A stretch of 64,000 nucleotides of DNA from an uncultured Solirubrobacterales bacterium (GTDB taxonomy: Bacteria; Actinomycetota; Thermoleophilia; Solirubrobacterales; Solirubrobacteraceae). Location of the stretch: positions 483,919-547,918 of the forward strand of contig CAWAIB010000005.1 of the NCBI GenBank assembly GCA_963782025.1, given 5' to 3'. The position numbers and the translations under genes were made by a program. Under the pieces are notes generated by a model, which saw only the letters and a list, made by a program, of their open reading frames with translations, was not told the DNA's origin and ran no database searches. Below are positions 15,979 to 62,615 of the stretch, one piece after another (within the stretch, counting starts at the first letter, position 1; each line of letters starts with the position of its first letter).

Positions 15979-16126
15979 CTAGTCGGTGAGCCGGATCTCG
16001 TGGTCCTTGAGCTTGGTGAGCAGGGCGATGTTGTGTCGTCCCCAGGGAATTTGTGCAGCAGGCTGTTGCACAATTGATGTTCAACACCCTTGCAGGGCAA
16101 TTGTCCAACGGGCTGTTGGACAATTT
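15979..16126 (-). pseudogene. internal fragment of a YhcG/DUF1016-family (PD-(D/E)XK nuclease) gene
   Basis: Minus strand reads IVQQPAAQIPWGRHNIALLTKLKDHEIRLTD* (16074..15979). A second out-of-frame copy of the motif reads IVQQPVGQL (16124..16098). QQPxxQ(I/L)PWGHN is the characteristic DUF1016 N-domain string. No start codon and no downstream nuclease domain. Confidence 0.6.
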
Positions 16127-16140
16127 CCCCGCTGCCTCGA

Positions 16141-16272
16141 GCTCAACCAAGGCAAGCAATCCCGGGTCTTTCGTCTCCCGGCCAATAAGTCCGCGAAGCG
16201 GTATTGGCCGGGAGACGAAAGGCCCGGGATCTGCGTAGCCGGGGGACGAAAGACCCGGGATCTGCGACGGGC
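16141..16272. repeat. type-1 hairpin element (27-bp stem, GCGAAGC apex) plus one extra R-arm copy
   Basis: L-arm CCCGGGTCTTTCGTCTCCCGGCCAATA 16161-16187, R-arm 16202-16228 (one T:G position), second R-arm end GACGAAAGACCCGGGATCTGCG 16245-16266. Preceded by GCTCAACCAAGGCAAGCAAT. Confidence 0.9.
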
Positions 16273-24403: not shown

Positions 24404-24689
24404 CGAAGGAAACCTACTACATGAGGATTGCGCTACAGGGGCCACATCGTCGAACCACGCGGCAGGCGGTGCAGGAGTCGAGATCGCCCTCGAACTGTAC
24501 TTCTCGATGTGTGGTGCTGGATATAGGCCCACTTGCGCTCGGTGAGCTCGACCTTGCGCCCTTGCGGTGAGAGAGTGTTCGAGTGTTCGCGATGACATGG
24601 GTGTCGTCAGTCCGACGTGCGGGTGGAGGACCAGGCATCGAACATATGGCCCATAGTCCCCGGACGGAATTCGGAACGATTCGTGTGGC

Positions 24690-25030
24690 TCAACCAAGGC
24701 AAGCAATCCCGGGTCTTTCGTCTCCCGGCCAATAGGTCCGCGAAGCGGTATTGGCCGGGAGACGAAAGACCCGGGATCTGCGACGGGGACAAGACCCGGG
24801 ATCTGCGACGGGGACAAGACCCGGGATCTGCGACGGGGACAAGACCCGGGATCTGCGACGGGGACAAGACCCGGGATCTGCGACGGGGACAAGACCCGGG
24901 ATCTGCGACGGGGACAAGACCCGGGATCTGCGACGGGGAGGAAGGTCCGGGATCTGCGACGGCAGCGAAGCCGGTATTGGACGGGGACGAAAGACCCGGG
25001 ATCTGCGAAGGGGACGAAGCCGGTATTTTG
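24690..25030. repeat. type-1 hairpin element with the largest arm-reiteration array (six perfect 25-bp units plus variants)
   Basis: L-arm 24708-24734, apex GGTCCGCGAAGCGG, R-arm 24749-24775 (perfect 27-bp stem). Units CGACGGGGACAAGACCCGGGATCTG start at 24781, 24806, 24831, 24856, 24881 and 24906. Degenerate units run to 25030. Confidence 0.95.
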
Positions 25031-28394: not shown

Positions 28395-28511
28395 CCCAAC
28401 TTAGAGCGGCCATAAGACATTGCAAAGTCGTCGTTAAGAGGTGGACCGTAGCCTCGCTGAGTGTCGTTGAGGCGCGATGTCAGACAACCAAACTGAGGAG
28501 GAGGCCGGCGC

Positions 28512-29482
28512 ATGGCTACGCAAGGGGTGCTTGGGGCGGCGACGTTGAAGGAGTTCGAGGACGGGTTGCACGGAGAGCTGATCCGGCCCGGCGATGGCGT
28601 TTATGACGAGGCTCGTGCGATCTGGAACGGCGCCCATGACGCTCGCCCGGCGGTGATCGCCCGCTGCGCTGATTCCTCCGACGTGCGCCACGCGATCGGT
28701 TTCGCGCGCAGCGAGGGACTTGACGTCGCGGTGCGTGGCGGCAGCCACAGCATCCGGGCGACCGCGCCGAGGAGATCATGCGCTTCTACCGGGAGTTCAC
28801 GCGTGAGGTGCCGGATGAGCTGAGCACCCTGGTCAACCTGATCACCGGGCCACCCGCTCCGTTCATTCCTGAGGACTGGCACGGCAAGAAGCTGATCGCC
28901 CTCGTCGGCTGCTACTCCGGTGACCCCGAGGAGGGGATGAAGGTGATGCAGCCGCTCCGCGACCTGGGCGACGCGGTCGCGGACCTTGTCAGCCCGATGC
29001 CCTACGTGCAGATGGAGAGCCTGCTCGATGCGCTCTGGCCGAAGGGCACCCAGGCCTACATGAAGGCGGGCTACTTCCGCGAGCTCGACGATCACGCGAT
29101 CGAGACGATGGCCCGCTTCCATCAGAACGCGACCTCCCCGGCCTCGGAGATCCACATCCAGCAGTTCGGCGGCGCGATCGCCCGTGTCGGTGAGGAGGAG
29201 ACCGCCTGCGGGGAACGCCAGGCGCCGTTCGTGCTCAACGCGATCGCCGCCACCCATGAGCCGACCGGCCTGGAGACCCATATGGATTGGGCGCAGCGGC
29301 TCTATGCCGAGATCGAGCCGTCGCTGACCGGTGGCGCCTACATCAACTTCCTCTCCTCCGAGGGCGAGGATCGGGTCAAGGCGGCCTACGGGACCGAGAA
29401 GTTCGCCCGGTTGCGGGCGCTCAAGGACCGCTACGACCCCACCAACCTGTTCCACCTGAACCAGAACATCCCACCATCATGA
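28512..29482 (+). pseudogene. BBE-type FAD-binding oxidase with 427-nt internal deletion (copy of 51088..52485)
   Basis: Nearly identical to 51088..52485 at both ends. The junction near 28751-28757 (CACAGCAT/CCGGGCGACC) removes the equivalent of about 51330-51756 and shifts the frame. The track shows two ORFs, 28512..28823 and 28778..29482. Confidence 0.9.
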
Positions 29483-29547
29483 TCATGGCGGTGAGGGTCC
29501 GCACCAAGCCACGTCTGGTGCGTCTACTGCTCGGAGTGCCCATTCCG

Positions 29548-29937
29548 TCACCGTTTTGCCGCGAGGTCGGCATAATGGCCCCACGGCAATGTTGCAGCAG
29601 GCTGCTGCAACATTGCCTCAGATGTCTCGCACATGCTCCATGCGCGCGCGAACTCGCGCATGTATCGAAGGTTACGTAGCGAGAAGCCGGTGATATCGGG
29701 CAGCTCGCGCCGAAGATCAACCGCCAGCCTGTCTACAATCTTGGCGCCCCATCCCTCACGCCGCTCGCGTTCGAGGATCTCGTGCCCGATTTCCCAGTAG
29801 AGCTGGATCAGCTCGCTGTTGACCGCGAGCACGGCACGAGTCCGGGCAGCCCCGATCCGGGCCTTGATCTCGGCCAGGAACTGCGGGTAGGCGGCCGGCA
29901 GCTCGTCGGCGCGACTTGTGGGTGGCACACTGGGCAT
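29548..29937 (-). pseudogene. truncated yhcG/DUF1016-family gene (N-terminal domain only)
   Basis: MPSVPPTSRADELPAAYPQFLAEIKARIGAARTRAVLAVNSELIQLYWEIGHEILERE...GFSLRNLRYMREFARAW...LQQPAATLPWGH, then unrelated sequence and a stop. The PD-(D/E)XK C-domain is absent. The ATG abuts the SOS box. Confidence 0.75.
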
Positions 29938-29951
29938 CGAACATATGTTCC
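29938..29951. promoter_or_regulatory. LexA/SOS-box-like operator (CGAACATATGTTCC)
   Basis: 13/14 match to the palindrome CGAACATATGTTCG. Lies directly 5' of the yhcG-like ATG on the minus strand. Confidence 0.6.
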
Positions 29952-29984
29952 CATCGTCTGCGGACGGCATCCGGAGCTACTCGT

Positions 29985-30133
29985 CTGAGCTCAACCCAGG
30001 CAAGCAGTCCCGGGTCTTTCGTCTCCCGGCCAATAGGTCCGCGAAGCGGTATTGGCCAGGAGACGAAAGGCCCGGGATCTGCGATCGCGGCGAGCCCGGT
30101 ATTGGACGGGGGACGAAGGCCCGGGATCTGCGC
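29985..30133. repeat. type-1 hairpin element plus one partial apex+R-arm copy
   Basis: L-arm 30009-30035, R-arm 30050-30076 (two imperfect positions), second copy GCGAGCCCGGTATTGGACGGGGGACGAAGGCCCGGGATCTGCG 30089-30133. Confidence 0.9.
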
Positions 30134-31300: not shown

Positions 31301-31454
31301 CGCGCCCAGAACGGTACGCGCGAGTTGTGACGGCAGAGTGGATTAGGTGCCCGCCCACCCCGCGAGACTGTCGCGAGAAGTCCAGCTTGCGGATCTAATT
31401 ACCAGTAACGACTCGTGTGTCCGTGTCTGCCAACACGCCTTGGGACTTCTTTCG

Positions 31455-31625
31455 AGCTCAACCCAGGCAAGCAATCCCGGGTCTTTCGTCTCTCGGCCAA
31501 TAAGGCCGCGAAGCGGTATTGGCCGAGAGACGAAAGACCCGGGATTGCGTAGCCGGGGAGGGAAGACCCGGGATTGCGTAGCCGGGGAGGGAAGACCCGG
31601 GATTGCGTAGCCGGGGGACGAAGAG
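31455..31625. repeat. type-1 hairpin element with 29-bp-period arm reiteration
   Basis: L-arm 31476-31502, R-arm 31517-31543 (perfect, T:A variant). Units ATTGCGTAGCCGGGGAGGGAAGACCCGGG at 31544 and 31573, partial unit from 31602. Abuts the stop codon (31630) of the surface-protein gene. Confidence 0.92.
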
Positions 31626-31629
31626 CGTC

Positions 31630-34112
31630 TCAGTACTTCACGTGCGCTTCGGCTTCGGTGTAGGAGGTGCCTTCTTCGACCTTGAGCTTCAGGATGGCTT
31701 CGCTCGTGCCGGACGCGGGGCTCGTGTATTCGAAGACGCCTGAGGATTCGGCGAGGCCGGAGGCGGGGATCGCGAGGCCGGTAGCGTTCGTGAGCGTGCC
31801 TTCGCCGCTCGTCTTTTCGACCTTCGCCTTGTGGGCGCCGCCGAGGTTGGAGACGATGTTGCCGTATGCGTCGGTGACGCTGGCGTGGGCTTTGAATTTC
31901 TTGCTGGCGCCGATGCTGGTCGTGATGCAGGCAAAGGGGCAGGTGCCTGCTTCGAGTTTGCCGGCGCTCACCGTGGCGCCTGACCAGGCAAAGCGTTCCG
32001 GCGCGCCAGCCCTGATCGTGAACGAGCCCGACGTGCCTGTCACGGTGGCTGCCTTCTTTGACTTTGAGGGTCGTGTTCTGGGCGTCAAAGAGCTTGATCA
32101 GAGAGGCTGTGCCCACGCCTTCGGTGAAGGTGACCGTCGTGGCCGTGGTCGGGTATTCGGGCGCGAGGCCGCCGGGCGAGCTGGCGGGTTCGCTGAAGGC
32201 GAGTGTCCTTGAGCCCGCATAGCCGGCCGTGATGTTGCCCCATTCGTCGGTGGCGGTGAGCGTGATGTTGAAGGGGGCGCCCGCTTCCTGTTCTGAGGGT
32301 GTTGGCACGGTGAGCTTTTTGGTCGCGGCTGCTTTGACCGTGAAGGAGCCCGTGACGCCTTCGATCGTCCCTTCCGTCGCCTTCAGTGTCGTGTTTTGGG
32401 CGTCGTAGAGTTTGATCGTCGAGGCCGTGCCCACGCCGGAGGCGAAGGTGACGGTCGCCGGGTAGCTGGGCGGTTGTCCGCTGGGCGAGTTTGAGGGTCC
32501 GCTCCAGGTGAGCGTCTTTGCGCCCGTGTAGCTCTTGGCGGTGTTGCCCCATTCGTCGATCGCGGTGGCTTTCACGCTGACGGCGGTGGTGCCCGCTGTC
32601 GCTTCGGCCGGCGTCGTCATGCTGAAGCTGTTGGCGGCGGCCGCCTTGACGGTGAACGAGCCCGAGGCGCCTTCGATGCTGCCTTCTTTCGCTTTGAGCG
32701 TGGTGCTCGCGGCGTCGTAGAGCTTGAGCGAGGAGGCCGTGCCCACGCCCGCGGTGAAGGTGACCGTCGTCGCCGAGGCAGGGTATTCGGGCGCTGTGCT
32801 GATGGGCGAGGGCGAGCTCGCCGGCCCGCTCCAGGCGAGCGTCTTTGCGCCGGCGTAGCTGGTCGCGGTGTTGGAGTATTCGTCGAGGGCGGTGAGCGTC
32901 ACGTTGAAGGGGGCGCCCGCTTCCTGTTCGGACGGCGTTGGCACAGTGAATTTCTTGGCGACGGCCGGTTTGACGGTGAAGCTGCCCGACGTTCCTTCAA
33001 TTGCTGTCGTGCTTTCCTTTGCTTTCAGCGTCGTGGTCTGGGCGTCGTACAGCTTGGTCGAGGCAGCCGCGCCGGCGCCGGCGGTGAAGGTGACCGATGC
33101 CGTGTAGCTGGGCGCTTTTCCACTGGGCGAGTTGGCGGGTTCGCTCCAGGTGATCGTCTTTTTGCCCGCATAGCTCGTGGCGGTGTTGCCGTATTCGTCG
33201 GTGGCGGTGAGCGTCACGTTGAAGGGGGCGCCCGCTTCCTGTTCTGAGGGTGTCGGCACGCTGAGCTTCTTCGCCGCGGCCGCTTTGACCGTCACCGCCA
33301 GTCCGGTGGAGTTGTTGAGCGAGCCTTCCTTGACCTTGATGTGCGCGGCTTCGGCCTTGTACAGGGTCATCACGCCGTTGATCGCGCTCGACACCGTGGA
33401 TTTGCCTTCGCTGAACGTGATTTCGGTTGCTTCGCCAAAGCTCCTTTCGACGCCTGAATTGTCAACCACAAGCGGTTCTTCGCCGGCCGCTTCGTTGGCG
33501 CCTTCAAAGATCAGGGAATGCGAACCCGAGTAGGTCCCGACCGTGTCGCCCGACGCGTCCTTGGCGGTGATTGTGAGGTTGTCGGTCGCGCCGGCGGTGG
33601 GCGTGGTGTTTGCGGCTTCGAGCACGAGGTGGGTCGCCGGGCCATAGGCAACCGTCACCGATTTGGCTGTGCTTGTCGCCGTCCAAGTGCGCCAGACCGC
33701 GGTGACCGTGTATTCGTGGGCGCCGATCGACAAGCCCGTGTCGGTGCAGCTCGTGGCGGTCGAGGGAGAGCCCGAGCTCGGGCAGCCGCCGCCGGGGGAG
33801 CCGGCGTCGCGAGTCAGCGAAGTATTCGACCGTGCCGCCGCCGGGTGGCGTGACGGCCGACCAGGTGAGTTCGACCGTTTGGGCGCCCGGCGTGGCACTC
33901 GAGATCGCGGGCGAGGAGAGCGTCGCCAGGCTCGCCGACGCGTTTATTGTGCCGGCGCCCGACCAGTAACCAAAGACGCCCGCGACCAGCAGGCTCAGCG
34001 TCATCACGGTAGTGACCGCGATCCGCCGGGGCCTGCTGTGGCGGTTCGATCGCCTGGGCCTGCTGCGACGATTCGGTCTTCTCATGAGTGCGCGCTTGGT
34101 ATCGCGGGCCAC
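31630..34112 (-). pseudogene. large cell-surface protein with about six tandem Ig-like (Big_1-type) repeats, interrupted by two +1 frame disruptions
   Basis: Three track ORFs join into one protein: 33504..34112 (signal anchor IAVTTVMTLSLLVAGVFGYWSGAG, TVEYF), 31343..33898 (LTRDAGSPGGGCPSS..., then ~100-aa repeats VPTPSEQEAGAPFNVTLTATDEYGNTATSYAG...KLYDAQTTTLKAKE) and 31630..32088 (ATVTGTSGSFTIRAG...EAEAHVKY*). Frame breaks near 33815-33825 and 32047-32056. Confidence 0.75.
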
Positions 34113-34650: not shown

Positions 34651-34730
34651 CTATCGGACGGGGTGTAGCGGGCTTTAGCGCTGGGCGCCGCCTGGCAATA
34701 CGGAACCAGAGTCGCGGCCGACCGTCGCTC

Positions 34731-34774
34731 GGGAGACGAAAGACCCGGGATCTGCGCCGGGGACGAAAGACCCG
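34731..34774. repeat. partial type-1 element (two R-arm copies, no L-arm)
   Basis: GGGAGACGAAAGACCCGGGATCTGCGCCGGGGACGAAAGACCCG. Lies between the 34135..34650 start and the 34777 stop. Confidence 0.8.
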
Positions 34775-35668: not shown

Positions 35669-36095
35669 CCGGGCCTTGATCTCGGCCAGGAACTGCGGGT
35701 AGTCGGCGGACAGCGCGTCGCTCCGGCGTAAGGGTGCAGAACAAGTAATCGAACATATGTTTGTATATGGCCAGGACGGAACGAGGCTACTCCAGGCGTC
35801 TGGCCCGTCTTCACGGCCGCTGATCCGGGCCCAACCAAGGCAAGCAGAGTCCGGGTCTTTCGTCTCCCGGCCAATAAGTCCGCGAAGCGGTATTGGCCGG
35901 GAGACGAAAGACCCGGATCTGCGCCGGGGGGAGCTGTGAAAATCTCTTTGTGAATTTAAGGATGTGTTTTTGGGCCAGCATTCGCGCAGGAAGGTGAAAC
36001 CTCCAATGGAAGTGGGCGCGGAGCGTCCTGCTCCGCGTACAGGGGTTGCTTAGCCACGGTAGATGTGTGGCTTTAGCCCTGGCTGGCTTGTACAA
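35669..36095. repeat. composite module L1: yhcG 5' fragment, SOS-like box, conserved 85-nt spacer, type-1 hairpin, D module
   Basis: 35669-35748 encodes (minus strand) ...SDALSADYPQFLAEIKAR with ATT in place of ATG. Hairpin arms 35850-35876 and 35891-35917. D module 35931-36095 with hairpin CGCGGAGC-GTCCT-GCTCCGCG at 36017-36037. Confidence 0.85.
35750..35763. promoter_or_regulatory. SOS-box-like site with one mismatch (CGAACATATGTTTG)
   Basis: 13/14 match to CGAACATATGTTCG, in the same module position as the perfect copies. Confidence 0.45.
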
Positions 36096-36103
36096 ACGCG
36101 CTG

Positions 36104-37525
36104 TCAGCCGTTGATGGTCCAGGCGAGCAGGCCGGCGGGAACGGCCCATATGTCTTCCCTCAGGTCGAGGATGTCGCGGGTGGCGATGATCCCTCGCTGG
36201 TAGTGCTCGTCCAGGGCTTTGCGCTCTTGCATCCATTTCTGGCTGACGTACTTGGACTCGATGGGAGTCTCTATGAGAGGACCGACGAAGTCGATCTCGC
36301 CGCCGGTGTTCGGGTTGCGCTGCACGAGGATCGCGGCCTCATCGAGGATCGCGAGGGGGTCGGCGCGGGCGAGGGCGCGCAGTAGACACATGCCGAGCTG
36401 TTGCTCGGACAGGTAGGTGACATCAGGGGACGCAACCGAGCGATCGCGCAGGAAGGGCAGGCGGGCGATCAGCGGGTCGGTGAAGTAGAGCTTGCTCTGC
36501 CCTCCTGCAACGGCCGTCACTCCATCGTGGGTGATGGAGGCCCGCCACGCGTAGAAGGAGGCGCAAAGCCTGTCGATACGGTCATCGACTGTGTTGCGAG
36601 TGCCGATGTTCAGCGATGTGGCGATGTTGGCGACGCTGAGCGGTGAGCCCATTCCAGCCACGAGGCGCTGAAGAAGTGCCTTCACGTCCCGGTCGCTCAT
36701 CGAGCCGATATGGAGGACGTCACCGACGAGGATGTTCCAGAGGCCGTTGGCTGTCGTGGCTTGCACGTCGACTCCCTCGAGGGCATCCGCGACCGCGCGG
36801 GGGAAACCGCCGATCGTCAGGTAACGCTCCCAGGCGAGAACGAGCTGGTCGACTTGGACCGCGAGTGGCTCCAGATAACGTCGAGCCCCATCGGATTGCA
36901 GGTCGAGCAACGCCACTGCATCCCCTGGGAGGTTGGCGGACAGGTTGGGATAGAGCTCTCCTACGAACGCACGAAACTGCATTGGGAGGAGCAGGCGAAC
37001 TCCGCCGGCGTCGCCCTCGCGGCCTCCGAGCTCCCCCTGAGCTTCGCGCAGCTTGGCTCCGGAGGACCCCGTCGCAACGACGCATCCACTGCGTAGGGAG
37101 GTTTGATCGCGTAGCTGCTTGAGGGCTGCGGCCCAGCCGCTGATGTAGGTGATCTCGTCGAAGAACCAGTAGCGGTGCTCAGGCGCGATCCCGGGTGTCA
37201 GATCCTCGGCGAGCTTGACGATGCGTCGCAGATCCTGGGGGCTCAGATCCTCACACGGACAGAACACGATCCGCCGCGGATCGACGCCCTCGTCGAGCAG
37301 GCCGGCGATTGCGCGCTTCATCGCAACGCTCTTGCCGGCCCGACGAGGGCCCATGAGGAGATAGAGCGAGCCGAGCGCGATGTCGCTCAACGGATGAGGG
37401 TCGTAGGAGCTGAGCGCGTTCAGTCGCGCCTCCCGCAGATCAGGATCCCGCTCCCGCCACCGCTTGGGGTCCTGCCACCACGGGTTGAAATCAAGCAAGT
37501 GCTGGCGGCGCTCGAAGTCCCTCAT
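36104..37525 (-). CDS. AAA ATPase with C-terminal DUF4143 nuclease-like domain (COG1373 type)
   Basis: 473-aa ORF. Walker A LLMGPRRAGKSVA, Walker B WFFDEITY, C-terminal GGEIDFVGPLIETPIESKY (D...E.K nuclease-like). TACAAT (37540..37535, minus strand) lies 9 nt upstream of the ATG. Confidence 0.85.
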   Translation of the reverse strand: MRDFERRQHLLDFNPWWQDPKRWRERDPDLREARLNALSSYDPHPLSDIALGSLYLLMGPRRAGKSVAMKRAIAGLLDEGVDPRRIVFCPCEDLSPQDLRRIVKLAEDLTPGIAPEHRYWFFDEITYISGWAAALKQLRDQTSLRSGCVVATGSSGAKLREAQGELGGREGDAGGVRLLLPMQFRAFVGELYPNLSANLPGDAVALLDLQSDGARRYLEPLAVQVDQLVLAWERYLTIGGFPRAVADALEGVDVQATTANGLWNILVGDVLHIGSMSDRDVKALLQRLVAGMGSPLSVANIATSLNIGTRNTVDDRIDRLCASFYAWRASITHDGVTAVAGGQSKLYFTDPLIARLPFLRDRSVASPDVTYLSEQQLGMCLLRALARADPLAILDEAAILVQRNPNTGGEIDFVGPLIETPIESKYVSQKWMQERKALDEHYQRGIIATRDILDLREDIWAVPAGLLAWTING

Positions 37526-37748: not shown

Positions 37749-38165
37749 CTGAGCGGGGTTTTTTGGGTCGCATCCGTGCAGAACAAGTAATCGAACATAT
37801 GTTCGCATATGGCCAGGACGGAACGAGGCTAGTCCAGGCGTCTGGCCCGTCTTCACGGCCGCTGATCCGGGCCCAACCAAGGCAAGCAGAGTCCGGGTCT
37901 TTCGTCTCTCGGCCAATAGGTCCGCGAAGCGGTATTGGCCGAGACGAAGACCCGGATCGAAGACCCGGGATCTGCGCCGGGGGATGAAAGACCCGGGATC
38001 TGCGACGGGGAGGGAAGACCCGGGATCTGCGACGGCGGGAGCTGCGAAAATCTCTTTGTAAATGGAGGATGTGTTTTTGGAGGATGTGTTTTTGGGCCAG
38101 CATTCGCGCAGGAAGGTGAAACCTCCAAAGGAAGTGGGCGCGGAGCCTCCTGCTCCGCGTCAAGG
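37749..38165. repeat. composite module L2: short yhcG start remnant, perfect SOS box, spacer, type-1 hairpin with three R-arm ends, D module
   Basis: Hairpin L-arm 37892-37918, R-arm 37933-37956 (with small deletions). R-arm ends finish at 37976, 38004 and 38031. D module 38037-38165 has an internal duplication GGAGGATGTGTTTTT x2. Confidence 0.85.
37792..37805. promoter_or_regulatory. perfect LexA/SOS-box palindrome CGAACATATGTTCG
   Basis: Exact 14-bp palindrome flanked by T on the left (TCGAAC). Matches the Gram-positive/actinobacterial LexA operator consensus CGAAC-N4-GTTCG. Confidence 0.65.
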
Positions 38166-39967: not shown

Positions 39968-40560
39968 CGGTGCGTCTCGCTGGTGAGGAGGGCTTGGATC
40001 GTGTGCTGTTGACGGCGGCGGGCGGCTTCTTCTTGGAGTTGCTTGCGCGTGAGCAGTCCTCGGCGCAGGGCCTGTCTGACCGCCATCGAGAGCTGCTCGG
40101 GCTGGAGGCGGTCCGCGACATCGAGGAGCGTTCGTGGCGGGGCGGTGAGGGGCAGGCCGTCACGCCAGACGGTCGCGACCTCTTCACCGTCAGGGCGGGT
40201 GTGGAGGGTGACGCCCGCAGGCCGGCGCAGCCCGCGGTGCCGGCGCGGGACGAGCAGGTGCATCCCGTCGGGGATGTTGTCGCTGAGGTCCAGCAGCGCG
40301 AGGGCGCTCTCGTGGGAGAGCAGTGCATCGCTGGCACCCACGGCCATCCACGCCTCGCGCAGGTCGTCGTGTTCGGCGGTTGGGAATCCTCGGATGCGGT
40401 ACAGACCGCGGCGGATACGCGCGAAGCGCCCGCGGCGCACGTGGTGATCCAGGAGTTGGCGGCTGACTCGATGCGCACGGGCCTGGCTGGCAGTGAAGTA
40501 GCCGCCCTGTTGATAAGCCTCGGCCTCGAGCTCCCGCATGCCAGGGTATACGTCATTCAT
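39964..40560 (-). CDS. type IV toxin-antitoxin AbiEi-family antitoxin (AbiEi_4-like)
   Basis: MNDVYPGMRELEAEAYQQGGYFTASQARAHRVSRQLLDHHVRRGRFARIRRGLYRI...ALLSHESALALLDLSDNIPDGMHLLVP...GLPLTAPPRTLLDV. The track ORF starts 16 codons earlier, inside module L3. Confidence 0.85.
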   Translation of the reverse strand: MNDVYPGMRELEAEAYQQGGYFTASQARAHRVSRQLLDHHVRRGRFARIRRGLYRIRGFPTAEHDDLREAWMAVGASDALLSHESALALLDLSDNIPDGMHLLVPRRHRGLRRPAGVTLHTRPDGEEVATVWRDGLPLTAPPRTLLDVADRLQPEQLSMAVRQALRRGLLTRKQLQEEAARRRQQHTIQALLTSETHR

Positions 40561-40589: not shown

Positions 40590-41025
40590 CACGAGAGTCA
40601 TCGAACATATGTTCGCATATGGCCAGGACGGAACGAGGCTAGTCCAGGCGTCTGGCCCGTCTTCACGGCCCGCTGATCCGAGCTCAACCAAGGCAAGCAG
40701 AGTCCGGGCCTTTCGTCTCTCGGCCAATAAGTCCGCGAAGCGGTATTGGCCGAGAGACGAAAGACCCGGGATCTGCGACGGGAGGAAGCCCCGGGATCTG
40801 CGCCGAGGCGGCGCTCGCCTATGGCGTGCGAGTGGTGTGTCTGTGTGCCGGAAGAGCCTGTGCAGGAAATCGGCTACGGGGGGTGTGTTTTGGCAGTTAT
40901 GAAGGCCGTCTTGATGAGCGTCAAAACCATGCCGACCCCACGCCTGAGGGCGCGCGGGAGGTGTGTCTCCAAGACCAGGTGGTCGTGGTGATGGCCTGTG
41001 CCGGTACGCAAGGCGGACAACGCGA
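40590..41025. repeat. composite module L3: SOS box, spacer, type-1 hairpin, E module, partial F module, type-2 spacer remnant
   Basis: Hairpin arms 40703-40729 and 40744-40770, extra R-arm end to 40802. E module 40803-40866, F module 40867-40950. GTGGTGATGGCCTGTGCCGGTACGCAAGGCGG at 40985-41016 matches the 64-bp type-2 spacer. Confidence 0.85.
40602..40615. promoter_or_regulatory. perfect LexA/SOS-box palindrome CGAACATATGTTCG
   Basis: Exact copy of the 37792-37805 site. On the minus strand it is followed by ATG (40601..40599), then unrelated sequence and the AbiEi gene. Confidence 0.65.
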
Positions 41026-42162
41026 TTATGCCCACAGGGCGCCGATTGGCAGAGCCCAGAGACGGTCTCCCAGGGGGATTGTCTGCTCTCGGGGATGGAT
41101 CACGATGCCTGCTGTAAAACGGGAGCCGCGACGTTCGCGGAGCTTGATCAGCCACTTGTAGTCCTGGCTCCTGATCGTCGCGCGCGCCTTGATCTCGATC
41201 GCGACGATCTGGCCGTCGGCGCGCTCCAGGATCAGGTCCACGTCTTCGCGGTCGCGCTGGTAGTGGTAGAGGCGGGCCCGGTTGGTGGAGGAGCCGAGGT
41301 GCTTGAGGATCTCCATCGCGACGAAGTTCTCGAGGATCTTGCCGGTGAGCTGATCGTCGCGTGCGATTCGCGTCTCGTCGGCGCCCAGTAGCGCCGCGAG
41401 CAGGCCCGAGTCGGCGAGATAGACCTTTGGCGTGCTCGCCTCTCGTGCCCCGAGCCCAGGCCGCCATGCGTTGAGCCTTCTCACGAGGAACAGCTGCTCC
41501 AGGAGTCCCACATAGGCCTTCACCGTTTCGGGGCTGAGGCGCAGACGCACGGCCGCGTTGCGGTAGGAGAGGAGGTTGGCCGCCTGGGTTGCGAGCAGGC
41601 GCAACAGCCTCGGCATCTCCTCGATCTTGATCGCATCGGAGATGTCGCGCAGGTCGAGCTCGAGCGTGCTATCGACGTAGCTTTCGAACCAGCGTTCGCG
41701 TCGGGGTCCACTGCGCACGAGGGCTTCGGGATAGCCTCCCGCGGCGACGATCGGCACAAAGGCGTCCCGCCCCACGGTGCAGCCGTCCAGCCATGGAGGA
41801 GCGCCCGCGAACAGAGCATCCACGAGGTTTGTCTGGCCGCCTCGAATCTCGCTCTGGGACAGTGGCCAGAGGTTCAATGTCTCGATGCGCCCGGTGAGCG
41901 CGTCCTTGACCCTCGTCGAGGTCAGGATGTTGGCGGAGCCCGTCAGCAGAAACCGGCCGGGGGTCGTGTCCCTGTCGACGGCGCGCTTGATCTCCAGCAG
42001 CAGCTCCGGCACGTGCTGGACCTCATCGATCAGGACAGGCCCGGAAAGCTCCGCAATAAAGCCCCCGGGATCGCGAAACGCCGCGTCGCGAGTCGCCGCC
42101 TCGTCGATGCAGCTCGCGCAGGATGCGGACGATTCCCTGCGCCGGCGACGATGAGACCGCAA
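41026..42162 (-). CDS. DUF4143-type ATPase-nuclease paralog lacking a recognisable in-frame P-loop (possibly degraded)
   Basis: PVLIDEVQHVPELL (Walker B region), RFLLTGSANI, C-terminal DVDLILERADGQIVAIEIKA. No Walker A upstream of the TTG start in this frame. Neighbouring frames 42163-42420 show only weak remnants. Confidence 0.65.
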   Translation of the reverse strand: MRSHRRRRRESSASCASCIDEAATRDAAFRDPGGFIAELSGPVLIDEVQHVPELLLEIKRAVDRDTTPGRFLLTGSANILTSTRVKDALTGRIETLNLWPLSQSEIRGGQTNLVDALFAGAPPWLDGCTVGRDAFVPIVAAGGYPEALVRSGPRRERWFESYVDSTLELDLRDISDAIKIEEMPRLLRLLATQAANLLSYRNAAVRLRLSPETVKAYVGLLEQLFLVRRLNAWRPGLGAREASTPKVYLADSGLLAALLGADETRIARDDQLTGKILENFVAMEILKHLGSSTNRARLYHYQRDREDVDLILERADGQIVAIEIKARATIRSQDYKWLIKLRERRGSRFTAGIVIHPREQTIPLGDRLWALPIGALWA

Positions 42163-50695: not shown

Positions 50696-50985
50696 GTAGT
50701 TTTCCTGATCAAGCTGCTCGCTCTGGAGTCCGAGCGCCGCCTCCACGTCGAGCAGGCGGCCGAGCTGCTGTGGGCGGGGCGGGACCCGGACTCCGCCCGC
50801 AACAACCTGCATCAGGCGATCTTCGCGGCCCGGCGCGCGCTCGACTCGATCGGGCTGGACGGCAGCCGCTACCTGGAGCTGCGCGAAGAACTGATCCTGC
50901 TCAGCCCCGAGGACCCGGTCCGGATCGACGCCGTCGCCTTCGAACAGCTCGCCGCCGCGGCGCGCAAGCAGGGCGAGCCCGGCGG
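50696..50985 (+). pseudogene. N-terminal fragment of a SARP/BTAD regulator (diverged paralog of 25065..28394)
   Basis: LIKLLALESERRLHVEQAAELLWAGRDPDSARNNLHQAIFAARRALDSIGLDG...PEDPVRIDAVAFEQ aligns with residues ~40-130 of the 25065 protein. It then joins directly to the sequence found downstream of that gene (GCGGCCATAAGACATTGC). Confidence 0.75.
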
Positions 50986-51087
50986 CCATAAGACATTGCA
51001 AAGTCGTCGTTAAGAGGTGGACCGTAGCCTCGCTGAGTGTCGTTGAGGCGCGATGTCAGACAACCAAACTGAGGAGGAGGCCGGCGC

Positions 51088-52485
51088 ATGGCTACGCAAG
51101 GGGTGCTTGGGGCGGCGACGTTGAAGGAGTTCGAGGACGGGTTGCACGGAGAGCTGATCCGGCCCGGCGATGGCGTTTATGACGAGGCTCGTGCGATCTG
51201 GAACGGCGCCCATGACGCTCGCCCGGCGGTGATCGCCCGCTGCGCCGATTCCTCCGACGTGCGCCACGCGATCGGTTTCGCGCGCAGCGAGGGACTTGAC
51301 GTCGCGGTGCGTGGCGGCAGTCACAGCATTCCCGGCTTCTCGACGGTCGATGACGGCATCGTTATCGACCTCTCGCCGATGAAGGGCGTCACGGTGGATG
51401 TGGCCGCTCGCACCGCCAGGGCCGAGGGTGGCGTCACCTGGGGGGAGTTCGACGCCGTCACCCAGGAGCACGGCCTTGCCACCACCGGGGGCCTGGTCTC
51501 GACCACCGGCGTCGCCGGCTTCACGTTGGGCGGCGGGATCGGCTGGCTGATGCGCAAGCATGGTCTGGCCTGCGACAACCTGCGCTCGGCCGAGGTCATC
51601 ACCGCCGACGGGCAGATCCTGACCGCGAGCGCGACGGAGAACCCCGATCTCTTCTGGGGCCTGCGCGGCGGCGGAGGTAATTTCGGCGTCGTCACCTCCT
51701 TCGAGTTCGACCTGCACCCGGTTGGCCCGACCGTGGCCGCCGGCCCGGTCTGGTATCCGGGCGACCGCGCCGTGGAGATCATGCGTTTCTACCGGGAGTT
51801 CACGCGTGAGGTGCCGGATGAGCTGAGCACCCTGGTCAACCTGATCACCGGGCCACCCGCTCCGTTCATTCCTGAGGACTGGCACGGCAAGAAGCTGATC
51901 GCCCTCGTCGGCTGCTACTCCGGTGACCCCGAGGAGGGGATGAAGGTGCTGCAGCCGCTCCGCGACCTGGGTGACGCGGTCGCGGACCTGGTCAGCCCGA
52001 TGCCCTACGTGCAGATGGAGAGCCTGCTCGATGCGCTCTGGCCGAAGGGCACCCAGGCCTACATGAAGGCGGGCTACTTCCGCGAGCTCGACGATCACGC
52101 GATCGAGACGATGGCCCGCTTCCATCAGAACGCGACGTCCCCGGCCTCGGAGATCCACATCCAGCAGTTCGGTGGCGCGATCGCCCGTGTCGGCGAGGAG
52201 GAGACTGCCCAGGGCGAGCGCCAGGCGCCGTTCGTGCTCAACGCGATCGCCGCCACCCATGAGCCGACCGGCCTGGAGACCCACATCGATTGGGCGCAGC
52301 GGCTCTATGCCGAGATCGAGCCGTCGCTGACCGGTGGCGCCTACATCAACTTCCTCTCCTCCGAGGGCGAGGATCGGGTCAAGGCGGCCTACGGGACCGA
52401 GAAGTTCGCCCGCCTCCGAGCGCTCAAGGACCGCTACGACCCCACCAACCTGTTCCACCTGAACCAGAACATCCCACCATCATGA
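51088..52485 (+). CDS. FAD-binding oxidoreductase (BBE-type), intact copy
   Basis: 465-aa ORF. DVAVRGGSHSIPG, LRGGGGNFGVVTSF, YDPTNLFHLNQNI. GAGGAGGAGG upstream of the start. Confidence 0.9.
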   Translation: MATQGVLGAATLKEFEDGLHGELIRPGDGVYDEARAIWNGAHDARPAVIARCADSSDVRHAIGFARSEGLDVAVRGGSHSIPGFSTVDDGIVIDLSPMKGVTVDVAARTARAEGGVTWGEFDAVTQEHGLATTGGLVSTTGVAGFTLGGGIGWLMRKHGLACDNLRSAEVITADGQILTASATENPDLFWGLRGGGGNFGVVTSFEFDLHPVGPTVAAGPVWYPGDRAVEIMRFYREFTREVPDELSTLVNLITGPPAPFIPEDWHGKKLIALVGCYSGDPEEGMKVLQPLRDLGDAVADLVSPMPYVQMESLLDALWPKGTQAYMKAGYFRELDDHAIETMARFHQNATSPASEIHIQQFGGAIARVGEEETAQGERQAPFVLNAIAATHEPTGLETHIDWAQRLYAEIEPSLTGGAYINFLSSEGEDRVKAAYGTEKFARLRALKDRYDPTNLFHLNQNIPPS

Positions 52486-53402
52486 TCGCGGCGGTGAGGG
52501 TCGAGGAGATGACGTTCCGCTCTGAGGGCGTGGACTGTGCGGCCCGGGTCTACCGGCCGGACGTTGCGCCTGGGGAGGCCACACCGTGCGTCGTGATGGC
52601 TAATGGTTTCAGCCTCACACAAGACGACGGTCTGCCGGCGTTTGCGGAGCGGTTCGCGGGCGAGGGGATCACCGCACTCACCTTCGACTTCCGCCACCTC
52701 GGCAGGAGCGATGGCGAGCCGAGGCAGGTCATGGACCCAAACCGCCAGCAAGCCGACTTCGTAGCAGCCGTGTCGTTCGCTCGACAGCTCGAAGGTATCG
52801 ACGCTGATGCCATGGCTGTGTGGGGCTTCTCAGGCGGCGGCGGTCTCGCGATTAACGTTGCGGCTCATGACCATAGGATCGCCGCTGCTATTGCCATGAA
52901 TCCGGCGACGGACACGATCGCGCTCTTCCGGACAATGCCGATCCGCACTTTGCACGCGGTGAACGTTGCTATTTTGCGCAACATGTTTGGCAGAGCGCGG
53001 GTTCACATTCCGGTTGCGGCGCCTCCAGGCTCCATAGCCTGGTTCACGCAGCCCGAGGCGCTCCCCGGTTTCGAGGCCATCCGTGGCGATCGCTCCCTCT
53101 GGCGCAACGAGTACTTGCCACTTTCGTTTGCGGGGGCCACCAGCTTCCGACCGGTCCGGGTGGCCCACCGTGTGCAATGCCCGCTGTTCGTCGGTATTGG
53201 TGAACAGGATCACGTGATTCCGCGTAAGGCGGCTGAACGGACCGCCGAACGTGCCCCGCGCGGTGAGCGGCGCGACTACCCGATCGATCATTTCGGCGCT
53301 TTCCTGGGTGAGGGTTTCGAGCGTGTGGTGGCAGACCAGATCGAGTTTCTCTCACGTCACCTGCTCGCTGCGCAAACACCCAGCCCGCGCGCGATCAGCT
53401 AA
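52482..53402 (+). CDS. alpha/beta hydrolase
   Basis: Start MIAAVRVEEMTFRSEG at an ATGA overlap with the oxidase stop. VVMANGFSLTQDD, VWGFSGGGG (GxSxG). The track start 52290 is an in-frame over-extension inside the oxidase gene. Confidence 0.8.
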   Translation: MIAAVRVEEMTFRSEGVDCAARVYRPDVAPGEATPCVVMANGFSLTQDDGLPAFAERFAGEGITALTFDFRHLGRSDGEPRQVMDPNRQQADFVAAVSFARQLEGIDADAMAVWGFSGGGGLAINVAAHDHRIAAAIAMNPATDTIALFRTMPIRTLHAVNVAILRNMFGRARVHIPVAAPPGSIAWFTQPEALPGFEAIRGDRSLWRNEYLPLSFAGATSFRPVRVAHRVQCPLFVGIGEQDHVIPRKAAERTAERAPRGERRDYPIDHFGAFLGEGFERVVADQIEFLSRHLLAAQTPSPRAIS

Positions 53403-58208: not shown

Positions 58209-58490
58209 AGGCTAGTCCAGGCGTCTGGCCCGTCTTCACGGCCGCTGATCCGGGCTCAACCAACGCAAGCAATCCCGGGCCTTTCGTCTCTCGGCCAATA
58301 AGTCCGCGAAGCGGTATTGGCCGAGAGACGAAAGACCCGGGATCTGCGACAGGGAGGGAAGACCCGGGATCTGCGCCGGCGGAAGCAGTGAAATCTCTTT
58401 GTGAATTGAGGATGTGTTTTGGGTCGCATCCGCGCAGGTAACCGAGACCTCCAGAGGGAGTGGGCGCGGGGCCTCCATGCCCCGCGTCGG
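58209..58490. repeat. composite module L4: partial spacer, type-1 hairpin plus one R-arm end, D module (no SOS box)
   Basis: Hairpin arms 58274-58300 and 58315-58341, extra R-arm end to 58375. D module 58381-58490 with the compensated hairpin variant CGCGGGGC-CTCCAT-GCCCCGCG at 58465-58486. Confidence 0.85.
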
Positions 58491-58580
58491 ATGCGATGGC
58501 AGTACGCCGGCTATCCACGCGCTCGCAACCTCGCAGAGAACAGTCGCCTGTTGGCGAAATTGTCAACCTGAGTTGGCATA

Positions 58581-60130: not shown

Positions 60131-60430
60131 TGCCCGGGCCCCCCACCCTGTGACCAACAAGTAACCATCTGTGAAGCCGGGCCTGAGATCGGCTACGGGG
60201 GGTGTGTTTTGGCAGTTATGAAGGCCGTCTTGATCAGCGTCAAAATCATGCCGACCCCACGCCAAGGGCGCGCCGGTGGCGCATGGTTCTGCCCATGCTC
60301 GCCTTCGCGACCGTCTTTGTGAATTGAGGATGTTGTGAATGGAGGATGTGTTTTTGGGCCAGCATCCGCGCAGGAAGGTGAAACCTCCAATGGAAGTGGG
60401 CGCGGAGCGTCCTGCTCCGCGTCATGGCGC
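60131..60430. repeat. F module followed by D module (shared with other loci)
   Basis: 60145-60310 is almost identical to 62445-62610 and partly to 40867-40950. 60311-60430 matches the D modules at 35931, 38037 and 58381. Confidence 0.85.
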
Positions 60431-60505: not shown

Positions 60506-61033
60506 CTATCGGGCGAGGGTGTCGAGGAACTCGTTGATTGCTGCGGCGGCGTCGGCGGCGAGGAGTTGCGCGTCGTCCTCGGGGGTGACCTTTCGTGCTT
60601 CGCGGGCGTAGGCTCGCGCGCCATGTGCGCGGTCGTTGCGAAATCGTTCGCGTATCTCCAGGAAGGTGGAGCTCATGCCCGGGAGTGCATCCGCGAGTGG
60701 GCTGGCCTTGACGATGTTGGCGGCTTCGGTTGGGCCACCGGCATCGTTGTGAAGTAAGACGTATGCGAGGTCGTAGTAATCCTTGTCGGCGCCGCGTGTG
60801 CGCACGGCCACGGACTTCGAGAGCAGGTAGCCGGCGAGTCCGGCGATCTGAACACGCAGATTGCCCTCGGGAACGTGAAGGATGTACTCGTGGTGGTCAC
60901 GCTCGACGTAGCCGGTGCCCCGGAGATTGACCGCTCGCAGCCTCGAGCACCCAACCGGTGAAACGATCGCCTCGGCCGGCTGGTTGTCGAGATCGCAGAG
61001 GAACTCGATCTTGACGATGCGATCGTTAGCCAC
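60506..61033 (-). CDS. N-terminally truncated nucleotidyltransferase toxin paralog (catalytic GG...DxD region absent)
   Basis: 175 aa aligning with the C-terminal ~170 aa of 57274..58089. Keeps the same 8-nt coupled start (GTGGCTAA vs GTGGCTGA), but roughly 95 N-terminal residues including the NTase motif are missing. Confidence 0.65.
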   Translation of the reverse strand: MANDRIVKIEFLCDLDNQPAEAIVSPVGCSRLRAVNLRGTGYVERDHHEYILHVPEGNLRVQIAGLAGYLLSKSVAVRTRGADKDYYDLAYVLLHNDAGGPTEAANIVKASPLADALPGMSSTFLEIRERFRNDRAHGARAYAREARKVTPEDDAQLLAADAAAAINEFLDTLAR

Positions 61034-62039
61034 GCTCTGATCCCATCACGTCGCGGAGATGTTGGGCGGCATCCTCTCCCCGGCCGCCAAGGCGTTTGAG
61101 GTCGGCGTAGACCCGTGGCCAGGAGACGAGGGGGCCAGACGGAGAAGGAGTCGTGAGGCTGAATGCGTTGCTTGGAGTGCGCCACAGCTCGATCCGGCCG
61201 GCGTCATCTGTGACGGTGAGGCCGGCGTCCCGTAGCCGCGGTGCGAGGTCGCGGTGCGCGTAGCGCTCATCGACCCGCAGGTGCAGGATCGGGAGCTGCG
61301 TGACGAATGGCGCGAGCTGCTGCGCGGCGGCCCACCCCGTCCAGCCGAACGCGACATCGCCGAGGACGTGCGTGAGGCGGGCCTGCAGGTCGTCGAGGTC
61401 GCGGCTGGTGGTGTGGGCAAACCACTTCTCTATGGGGCTGGTGTTGAGGTGCGCTGTCCAGGATGCGAGCATCGCCTCCGGGTGTTCCAGGACACGGTGC
61501 GCTCCGCGTCCTCGGGCAGGTCCCTGCTTCGCGGTCCAGCCTTCCTGGTCCCAGCCGGTGAGGATCCGGCTGGCTCGCGCGATCGAGCAGCCGGCGTGTT
61601 CAGCGATCCAGGCCGTCGTGATCTGTTCGGGGCGAGCGGCGAGGGTCGCCTCGGCGGCAAGGATCGCGATCTCACTCCAGGAGGCCCCACGCGGATTTGG
61701 ATCCTTTGGCGCGGGCGCGCGGTCGACGTGGACGAGCAGGCCGTCGCCCCGCAGATTCGCCGCGCCTGTCTCATCGACCCAGTTGATCGCCCGCTCGTCG
61801 AGCAGCCGCCGAGCGCCGGATGAGAGCTCAGGCGCGACTACGAGCGTCACAGCTGGGGAGCGCTCCAGCCGTGCACGGACCTCGGCCGGGGAGCCACGGC
61901 GAACCCACGCGGCGCTGAAGCGTGGCTGGCGAGGCAGCCCCACGACGCGCAGGGCATGCGCGCCGGCCGCGGACTGGACGAGAACGTCAGCATCGAGCAC
62001 GGTGCTGACGGCACGCGTCAACCGATCTTTCTCGTTCAT
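61026..62039 (-). CDS. AbiEi-like antitoxin-family protein (paralog of 56253..57281)
   Basis: 337-aa ORF with the shared C-terminal motif. TAGAAT (62051..62046, minus strand) lies 6 nt upstream of the ATG in an AT-rich 60-nt stretch. Confidence 0.65.
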   Translation of the reverse strand: MNEKDRLTRAVSTVLDADVLVQSAAGAHALRVVGLPRQPRFSAAWVRRGSPAEVRARLERSPAVTLVVAPELSSGARRLLDERAINWVDETGAANLRGDGLLVHVDRAPAPKDPNPRGASWSEIAILAAEATLAARPEQITTAWIAEHAGCSIARASRILTGWDQEGWTAKQGPARGRGAHRVLEHPEAMLASWTAHLNTSPIEKWFAHTTSRDLDDLQARLTHVLGDVAFGWTGWAAAQQLAPFVTQLPILHLRVDERYAHRDLAPRLRDAGLTVTDDAGRIELWRTPSNAFSLTTPSPSGPLVSWPRVYADLKRLGGRGEDAAQHLRDVMGSERG

Positions 62040-62097
62040 GCCTATATTCTACTACCACAAGCAAGAATACGATAGGAAGCAAAAAAAGGTGTGCCCA

Positions 62098-62615
62098 GGT
62101 CCGTGCAGCCCCGATCCGGGCCTTGATCTCGGCCAGGAACTGCGGGTAGTCGGCGGACAGCGCGTCGCTCCGGCGTAAGGGTGCAGAACAAGTCATCGAA
62201 CACATGTTTGTATGTGGCCAGGACGGAACGAGGCTACTCCAGGCGTCTGGCCCGCCTTCACGGCCGCTGATCAGGGCCCAACCAAGGCAAGCAGAGTCCG
62301 GGTCTTTCGTCTCTCGGCCAATAAGTCCGCGAAGCGGTATTGGCCGAGAGACGAAAGACCCGGGATCTGCGCCGAGGCGGCGCTCGCCTATGGCGTGCGA
62401 GTGGTGTGTCTGTGTGCCGGAAGAGCCTGTGCGGGAGACGCCCGCCTGTGACCAACAAGTAACCATCTGTGAAGCCGGGCCTGAGATCGGCTACGGGGTG
62501 TGTTTTGGCAGTTATGAAGGCCGTCTTGATGAGCGTCAAAATCATGCCGACCCCACGCCAAGGGCGCGCCGGTGGCGCATGGTTCTGCCCATGCTCGCCT
62601 TCGCGATCGTCCTCG
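62098..62615. repeat. composite module L6: yhcG 5' fragment (about 33 codons), SOS-like box, spacer, type-1 hairpin, E module, F module
   Basis: Minus strand 62196..62098 reads MTCSAPLRRSDALSADYPQFLAEIKARIGAAR... Hairpin arms 62297-62323 and 62338-62364. E module 62372-62440, F module 62441-62615. Confidence 0.85.
62197..62210. promoter_or_regulatory. SOS-box-like site (CGAACACATGTTTG)
   Basis: GAAC-N4-GTTT in the module position of the perfect boxes. One half-site mismatch. Confidence 0.4.

Follow-up and report, generated by a model that had tools for sequence, protein, structure and literature searches.

A LexA-like palindrome at the start of DUF1016 genes in uncultured Solirubrobacterales: a predicted SOS operator

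A 14-nt palindrome, CGAACATATGTTCG, recurs along a 64,000-nucleotide stretch of DNA from an uncultured Solirubrobacterales bacterium (the window), with large repeated hairpins on one side and the start codons of minus-strand, DUF1016-like reading frames on the other. An earlier note had read it as a LexA (SOS) box embedded in the hairpin modules. The question raised by this locus is to which of its two neighbours the box belongs, and whether it is likely to be bound by LexA.

Boxes, DUF1016 remnants and hairpin modules in the window

The window, with a G+C content of 61-73%, carries ordinary actinobacterial accessory genes (P450, BTAD/LuxR regulators, BBE oxidases, methyltransferases, a two-component system). 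Defence-type genes are concentrated at 29.9-42 kb and 56-64 kb; they include a DprA-like protein scoring as ShosA, AAA_14/DUF4143 ATPases (PADLOC PDC-S01), AbiEi and a weak AbiEii-like match. Two ENA contigs (L081 and L082) represent syntenic sister strains, 97-99% identical to the window.

Exact copies of the palindrome are found at two positions, 37792-37805 and 40602-40615. The sites at 29938 (…GTTCC) and 35750 (…GTTTG) differ from it by one mismatch and the site at 62197 by two, and a half-site is located at 24639; coordinates and sequences were all as previously described (Table 1). When up to two mismatches are allowed, 5 matches are found in the 64-kb window against 0.11 expected, a number reached in 0 of 100 shuffles. 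Since the copies sit in duplicated modules, 86-97% identical to one another, this excess reflects module duplication and not independent sites. Of the six sites, only 29938, 37792 and 40602 retain the strict GAAC-N4-GTTC core, while GTTT is found at 35750 and 62197, so that three boxes are intact, two are mutated in the core and one (24639) is half lost. Over about 564 kb, comprising the window and the further loci examined, all exact CGAAC-N4-GTTCG sites whose spacer is AT-rich coincide with DUF1016 starts; the sole other exact occurrence, at 41685, has a GC-rich spacer and falls within a coding region.

The minus-strand frames abutting the boxes are indeed related to DUF1016. The one opened by the ATG at 29937 matches the Pfam domain DUF1016_N (PF17761) with E=5.4e-29, the one at 62196 retains 33 homologous codons and the one at 40601 only 2. 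All window copies are truncated remnants, and two of them have ATT in place of the start codon (35749 and 37791). In three related loci (L085, L089 and L091) the N and C parts of DUF1016 are encoded by adjacent ORFs, PF17761 being followed by PF06250 (YhcG_C), and ORFs containing DUF1016_N only, 129-219 aa in length, are abundant in the clade. The family scores as the PADLOC candidate defence gene PDC-S02 (E=1.5e-79), its members are found within or beside R-M and defence loci, and a close homologue (P0003, 81% identical) comes from Solirubrobacteraceae. DUF1016 is a YhcG-like, split PD-(D/E)XK nuclease family of Solirubrobacterales, and a candidate defence nuclease.

Among the cargo genes that take the place of DUF1016, an ATPase (AAA_14) and AbiEi were identified as proposed, whereas the supposed toxin/antitoxin pair matched no family. 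AbiEi, with ATG at 40560, is preceded by TATACT (40572-40567) at a distance of 6 nt, and the ATPase by TACAAT before its ATG at 37525 (both read by eye); for the cargo following the 35669 remnant, a consensus scan returned the promoter-like TTGACA-16-TACACT at 35647-35620. As promoter-like sequences already precede the cargo genes themselves, re-use of an SOS promoter in front of it, one of the possibilities previously raised, is not needed, and the loss of two start codons and the mutation of two cores make it doubtful; read-through from the two perfect boxes into the cargo may take place. Because the DUF1016 copies are all remnants, three cores are left and the cargo has its own promoter-like sequences, the boxes of this window are mostly relics. 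Where DUF1016 has been lost, box and start codon have decayed, as would be expected if the operator served DUF1016.

Table 1. Boxes, DUF1016 remnants and hairpin modules of the window, and box-bearing DUF1016 starts in related loci
Feature	Position	Strand	Sequence or remark
Perfect box	37792-37805		CGAACATATGTTCG; ~16 nt of DUF1016 5' sequence left at 37776-37791
Perfect box	40602-40615		CGAACATATGTTCG; minus-strand ATG 40601-40599 adjoining
Box, core intact	29938-29951		CGAACATATGTTCC; abuts ATG (29937) of longest DUF1016 remnant
Decayed box	35750-35763		CGAACATATGTTTG; core GTTC to GTTT; start codon mutated to ATT
Decayed box	62197-62210		CGAACACATGTTTG; core GTTC to GTTT
Half box	24639-24652		CGAACATATGgccc; left half and spacer survive (24639-24648), right arm destroyed
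Second conserved block	40626-40631		GGACGG (gene orientation CCGTCC); in every copy, 10-11 nt from box
DUF1016 pseudogene remnant	29516-29937	-	N-domain residues ~1-130 fused to short YhcG_C piece (29516-29575); PF17761, tblastn
DUF1016 5' remnant, ~27 codons	35669-35749	-	start codon mutated to ATT; unrelated cargo next
DUF1016 5' remnant, ~33-37 codons	62086-62196	-	MTCSAPLRRSDALSADYPQFLAEIKARIGAART…; joins cassette of gene 61026-62039 near 62090
DUF1016-like, ~10 codons	~24605-24638	-	beside half box 24639
DUF1016 5' scrap, ~16 nt	37776-37791	-	start codon mutated to ATT (37789-37791)
DUF1016 homology, 2 codons	from 40601	-	AbiEi cargo thereafter
Internal DUF1016_N fragment	15988-16086	-	…IVQQPAAQIPWGRHNIALLTKLKD…; beside hairpin module 16128, without box; tblastn
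Hairpin module core, reference copy	40670-40780	+	GCTCAACCAAGGCAAGCA, 27-bp stem with GCGAAGC-type apex, then GATCTGCG
Other hairpin cores	16128-16238, 24675-24785, 29976-30086, 31443-31553
Other hairpin cores (further)	35817-35927, 37859-37969, 58241-58351, 62264-62374
3'-arm-only hairpin remnant	34728-34761
DUF1016 start, L085/L086			…TATG-CGAACATGTGTTCG-ATG
DUF1016 start, L087			CGAACATGTGTTCG-T-ATG
DUF1016 start, L088			CGAACATGTGTTCG-GTG
DUF1016 start, L089			GGAACGTATGTTCG-ATG
DUF1016 start, L091			GGAACGTGTGTTCG-T-ATG
DUF1016 starts, L001 and L002	L001:3627, L002:5153		box at same position before DUF1016

Nine hairpin cores are distributed, all in one orientation, across 46 kb. On the plus strand the full module consists of a minus-strand DUF1016 5' fragment, the box, a spacer, GCTCAACCAAGGCAAGCA, the hairpin, GATCTGCG and repeats, a 25-nt unit repeating the 3' arm being present in up to about 8 further tandem copies after GATCTGCG. 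Some modules include an extra conserved segment (35956-36043, 38078-38165, 58404-58491, 60340-60427), which contains a second G+C-rich hairpin. A box accompanies 6 of the 9 cores, the modules at 16128, 31443 and 58241 being devoid of it. The distance of 85-90 nt originally given between box and hairpin L-arm applies to four copies (87 nt at 35750, 37792, 40602 and 62197) but not to the two short-form copies at 24639 and 29938, where it is about 57 nt. Hairpin modules are also found between convergent and divergent ordinary genes, and the same modules are present in a MAG from uncultured Solirubrobacterales.

The hairpin is predicted to fold with an energy of -102.6 kcal/mol for 201 nt (z = -7). 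Over 16 copies, from at least 6 genomes, 93% of the stem is paired and compensatory changes are seen at five pairs, which indicates that the structure is under selection. The 64-kb window gave no Rfam match at gathering score, a single module searched at E≤1 gave chance-level matches only, and a 26-nt pattern of the hairpin apex gave 0 matches in metagenomes. In the orientation of the gene, the large hairpin and then AUUGCUUGCCUUGGUUG lie upstream of the DUF1016 promoter, and one may speculate that the hairpin and the extra segment keep read-through transcription from reaching a nuclease gene that may be toxic.

The modules vary between strains and loci. A 200-nt patch in the DUF1016 remnant (29600-29799) is 31% diverged from a sister strain, within surroundings about 99% identical; sister strains differ in the number of tandem repeats, and part of one hairpin has been lost from the window (34702-34732). 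The cassette of gene 61026-62039 has an upstream boundary common to the window and to a related locus, L036, where its partners are different. These comparisons point to recombination among DUF1016/hairpin paralogues as the process by which the modules would spread. Three independent truncations are located within about 20 nt, beside a GATCCGGGCC motif mirroring the hairpin tail, GACCCGGGATCTGCG.

The box at DUF1016 starts in related lineages

DUF1016_N homologues were gathered and their upstream DNA was read in 11 diverged Solirubrobacterales lineages, whose DUF1016 proteins share 63-100% identity with the fragment encoded in the window. In all 11 the DUF1016 start codon follows the box at a distance of 0-1 nt. 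The only elements conserved 5' of this codon are CCGTCCG and tATG-sGAAC-RTRT-GTTCG, and beyond about 35 nt upstream the sequences of different lineages are unrelated. Both arms of the box are close to invariant, the GTTCG beside the start codon being invariant in 11/11 lineages, and the spacer conforms to RTRT in every one. A mini-ORF or an upstream start codon covering the box was considered and rejected, an in-frame ATG further upstream being present in 3/11 lineages only.

Box and hairpin are often found apart. The box has no adjoining hairpin in L085, L087, L088, L089, L091, L001:3627 and L002:5153; conversely, hairpin relatives without a box are found in L036, L040, L063, L064 and L068. 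In L068 and L040 the hairpin is followed by a differently started DUF1016 gene, without box, and elsewhere by another gene; most hairpin relatives from metagenomes lack the box. The box therefore belongs to the DUF1016 5' end and travels with DUF1016, and the hairpin repeat does not include it; the view that it is embedded in the hairpin modules, from which it is missing in 3/9 cases within the window itself, had to be abandoned. Its association with the hairpin is incidental: the box is a passenger from the presumed DUF1016 promoter and has no function in the hairpin element, and models of hairpin spread should treat the two elements separately. The box was also looked for in organisms with an established LexA motif; the DUF1016 genes of a Rhodococcus plasmid and of Phytoactinopolyspora are without it. 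The loci examined have no conserved regulator gene beside DUF1016, which favours a trans-acting repressor encoded elsewhere in the chromosome.

LexA and the competing explanations

The assignment to the LexA operator type made in the earlier note agrees with the published consensus sequences, TCGAAC-N4-GTTCGA for M. tuberculosis (PMC3381160) and tCGAAC-N4-GNNCGa for S. venezuelae (PMC9380542). The match is to a consensus derived from other actinobacteria, which may differ from the clade's own. The Cheo box of B. subtilis has the consensus CGAACRNRYGTTYC, with a spacer of the same RTRT type, and the box at 29938, CGAACATATGTTCC, equals this Cheo-box form. Conservation of both arms, position over the start and promoter, and the lack of a neighbouring regulator gene are consistent with a dimeric repressor acting in trans, such as LexA. 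On these grounds we slightly favour the interpretation of the box as an operator of the LexA type that overlies the core promoter of the DUF1016 gene.

The DUF1016 mRNA is probably leaderless, because the start codon comes 0-1 nt after the box, with no Shine-Dalgarno sequence between them, and protein conservation begins at that methionine. The box would then span -14 to -1, and GAACRT, with A at position 2 and T at position 6, would fall at -13 to -8; together with the conserved TG just 5' of the box it might act as an extended -10 (TG-n-GAACAT) whose hexamer is wholly inside the operator. A consensus promoter scan and inspection revealed no convincing -35/-10 pair at the box. A LexA dimer on the box would block RNA polymerase, and DNA damage, through RecA-stimulated LexA self-cleavage, would release the DUF1016 nuclease gene. 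In the window, the box and the DUF1016 5' end have been copied along with the neighbouring hairpin repeat and joined to defence-type cargo. DUF1016 is accordingly a predicted new member of the SOS regulon in an uncultured actinobacterial order. Counting against this, a literature search returned no paper linking DUF1016 to a LexA regulon, DUF1016 is missing from the S. venezuelae LexA supplements, and the Rhodococcus and Phytoactinopolyspora genes are without the box.

The two-armed conservation shows only that the binder is likely to be dimeric, and the palindrome could be the operator of another dimeric regulator, such as the repressor of a mobile element, or serve autoregulation by DUF1016_N, a helical domain that stands by itself in many ORFs of the clade. 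Confinement of the box to one DUF1016 subfamily would suit such a regulator, as would the results of the searches for SOS genes: tblastn of LexA and RecA found neither these nor other canonical SOS genes in the window or in the 93 further loci examined, and among the 60 matches listed, of 681, from a LexA tblastn against a plasmid collection there is no Thermoleophilia or Rubrobacter. Moreover, Rubrobacter radiotolerans RSPS-4, a deep-branching actinobacterium outside the class, is without lexA (PMC4148983). The box, however, reproduces the phylum's LexA consensus exactly, down to the RNRY spacer, and a dedicated regulator gene is not conserved beside DUF1016; we consider a regulator other than LexA unlikely, yet worth keeping in mind. 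An NrdR box was rejected on inspection, its half-site pattern being different. The conserved block might also be just a core promoter and a leaderless DUF1016 start, with no repressor and a coincidental resemblance to LexA sites. TG-n-GAACAT could be an extended -10, and the conservation of the spacer and of the flanking tATG could reflect promoter constraint rather than LexA contacts, but a promoter does not need mirror-image arms, and a GTTCG invariant in 11 lineages would have no promoter role at -5 to -1. This makes the absence of any repressor rather improbable.

A role of the box as a recombination or insertion site, with an att-like core joining cargo cassettes, is suggested by foreign-DNA junctions 0-5 nt from the box at 40602 in the window, at L001:2937 and in L083/L084; in these last loci a Phage_integrase gene lies directly upstream and the box is broken. 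Modules also flank the cargo as direct repeats. Yet further junctions fall about 16, about 30, 81, 98 and about 390 nt into DUF1016, with no fixed crossover, a typical tyrosine-recombinase core is longer than two 5-bp arms around a 4-bp spacer, the window ORFs scanned include no recombinase, and in L085, L089 and L091 the box precedes an intact-looking split DUF1016 without any cargo junction. It is thus quite improbable that the box is such a site. Hardly credible, finally, is the earlier proposal that the box controls a plus-strand, SOS-dependent transcript running into the hairpin and its tandem repeats. The box does lie 57-87 nt 5' of the hairpin in six modules, and the hairpin is under structural selection, but each element is kept without the other, nothing is conserved on that side once the hairpin is absent, the conserved neighbour of the box is the minus-strand start codon with its N-terminal peptide, and the hairpin corresponds to no Rfam family. 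Even taken together, the promoter without repressor, the att-like site and the plus-strand transcript remain unlikely.

Should LexA bind the box, the SOS regulon of Thermoleophilia would gain a candidate anti-phage nuclease family (DUF1016/YhcG, PDC-S02). Members of this class of Actinomycetota abound in soil, but very few have been cultured, and their response to DNA damage has hardly been studied. DNA damage, or damage induced by phages, would be tied to the expression of a defence-island nuclease, and the 14-bp box could be used as a probe for mapping the LexA regulon in Thermoleophilia genomes.

Comparison with known systems

An SOS-type box next to co-oriented cassettes, separated by conserved hairpin-forming repeats, recalls integrons, whose integrase genes have been reported to be under SOS regulation (PMC3108266). 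Here, however, the box precedes a nuclease gene and not intI, and the near-perfect 27-bp stem shows no clear R''/R' cores or extrahelical bases like those of attC sites. GCTCAAC, 5' of the stem, fits RYYYAAC, but a conserved complementary GTTRRRY is not found 3' of it. Phage_integrase had no match in about 60 window ORFs scanned, and was found beside DUF1016_N only in the unrelated loci L083/L084. An integron proper was rejected, there being no integrase in the window ORFs scanned and no clear attC core. A more distant analogy would be an actinobacterial, integron-like cassette-exchange system, made of the SOS-gated DUF1016 nuclease, the hairpin and the direct-repeat modules, in which damage licenses the shuffling of defence cassettes and the tyrosine integrase is replaced by the PD-(D/E)XK nuclease or by RecA-mediated recombination at the repeats. 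The nine co-oriented modules, the covarying stems, the shared cassette boundary, the gene-conversion patch in DUF1016 and the clustered truncations hint at such a system, which we nevertheless hold to be improbable.

With the Gram-positive/actinobacterial SOS box (Cheo box, the LexA/DinR operator, CGAAC-N4-GTTCG) the palindrome shares the core, the RNRY-type spacer, the overlap with gene start and presumed promoter, and conservation across homologous promoters. It differs in that DUF1016 is not a known SOS gene and most copies in the window front dead genes.

A precedent is offered by REP13E12 of M. tuberculosis, a multi-copy and putatively mobile repeat family at whose genes six LexA ChIP-seq peaks were observed; this too is a repeated, probably selfish or accessory actinobacterial family with an SOS box per copy, some of them degenerate (PMC3381160). 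Its protein is of the 13E12/HNH type, as opposed to the PD-(D/E)XK type of DUF1016, it has no adjoining structured hairpin, and LexA binding was established there by ChIP-seq, while here it is predicted from sequence.

Damage-inducible genes of the dinD/RhuM type lie within type I restriction-modification (R-M) loci and defence loci; in E. coli, dinD is regulated by LexA. The fold and family of dinD/RhuM are unlike those of DUF1016; what they have in common is an SOS-gated accessory gene within R-M/defence loci, a niche that is also that of DUF1016, for which the gating is predicted.

Repeats and a conserved segment around the hairpin modules

Conserved and repeated features of the window, with their coordinates
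Feature	Window position	Strand	Description
Conserved 90-nt segment	35956-36043, 38078-38165, 58404-58491, 60340-60427		GGAGGATGTGTTTTTGGGCC…GGGCGCGGAGC-N5-GCTCCGCG
Tandem 25-nt repeats	24766-24965; also 37948-38036, 31522-31620		unit AAGACCCGGGATCTGCGACGGGGAC
Large ORF	31343-33898	minus	internal repeats of ~312-320 nt, 62-85% identical

The 3' arm of the hairpin, together with its tail, is duplicated by tandem 25-nt units (see table). The number of GACCCGGGATCTGCG cores in the 24766-24965 stretch varies among sister strains, being 7 here vs 5 and 3 in the syntenic contigs L081 and L082, respectively, a variation suggestive of slippage or of some process acting repeatedly at GACCCGGGATCTGCG.

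The conserved 90-nt segment was also found in eight of the loci fetched for comparison (L001, L002, L063, L064, L071, L074, L085 and L091), with an identity of 80-98% between several genomes. It is located upstream of DUF1016, the YhcG-like nuclease family, either with or without the big hairpin. No match was found in Rfam, and the segment may be a terminator, an insulator or a small RNA. The large ORF produced no convincing family match; its called 3' end is probably over-extended, since a hairpin module (31443-31553) falls within it.

Box-like matches and other palindromes

A further exact CGAAC-N4-GTTCG (CGAACCAGCGTTCG) occurs at 41685-41698, within the AAA_14/DUF4143 ATPase gene; its spacer is GC-rich and it is not conserved elsewhere, so that this match to the candidate LexA operator is probably due to chance. 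Palindromes of the TTGTGCAGC-N3-GCTGCACAA and AATTGTCCAAC-N3-GTTGGACAATT types, observed at 16090-16160 in the window, at 3271-3313 in L001 and in upstream regions of L087 and L088, were ruled out as operators, as they correspond to DUF1016_N coding sequence, encoding the conserved motif IVQQPAAQ(I/L)PWG.

Rearrangements within the window and between strains

The cassette carrying gene 61026-62039, for which no family match was obtained, seems to be mobile as a discrete unit. Its upstream boundary (…GAAGCAAAAAA) is identical in the window (about 62090) and in the metagenomic contig L036, but its neighbour there differs, being a DUF1016 remnant in the former and, with a direct junction, a hairpin flank in the latter. 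A BBE/FAD-oxidase gene region is duplicated in the window (28406-29499 vs 50982-52502, 97-99% identical); about 425 nt are missing from the interior of the copy at 28.4-29.5 kb, and the gene is full at the same position in L082.

When the window is compared with L081, 62 of the 200 positions in 29600-29799, inside a DUF1016 remnant, are different, vs about 99% identity in the surrounding 11 kb. This patch looks like the product of gene conversion, with a paralogous DUF1016 copy as donor. A deletion of about 130 nt at 34702-34732 (relative to L081 1090-1250 and to L082) removes the 5' arm of one hairpin module, which is intact in both sister strains.

DUF1016 genes in the clade

Among the loci examined, the sole recombinase found beside the DUF1016 family is a Phage_integrase-domain gene of a Solirubrobacteraceae MAG (L083/L084, 3225-4001), ending 116 nt upstream of DUF1016_N, where the box is broken (CACCGA|TTCAGCC). 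According to homologue matches, DUF1016 is usually encoded in two pieces in the clade, one ORF (about 208-219 aa) carrying the N-domain and another (about 135-160 aa) carrying YhcG_C (L085, L089, L091). Shorter N-only ORFs, of 74-180 aa, are very common among the same matches, and DUF1016 truncation is therefore widespread in the clade.
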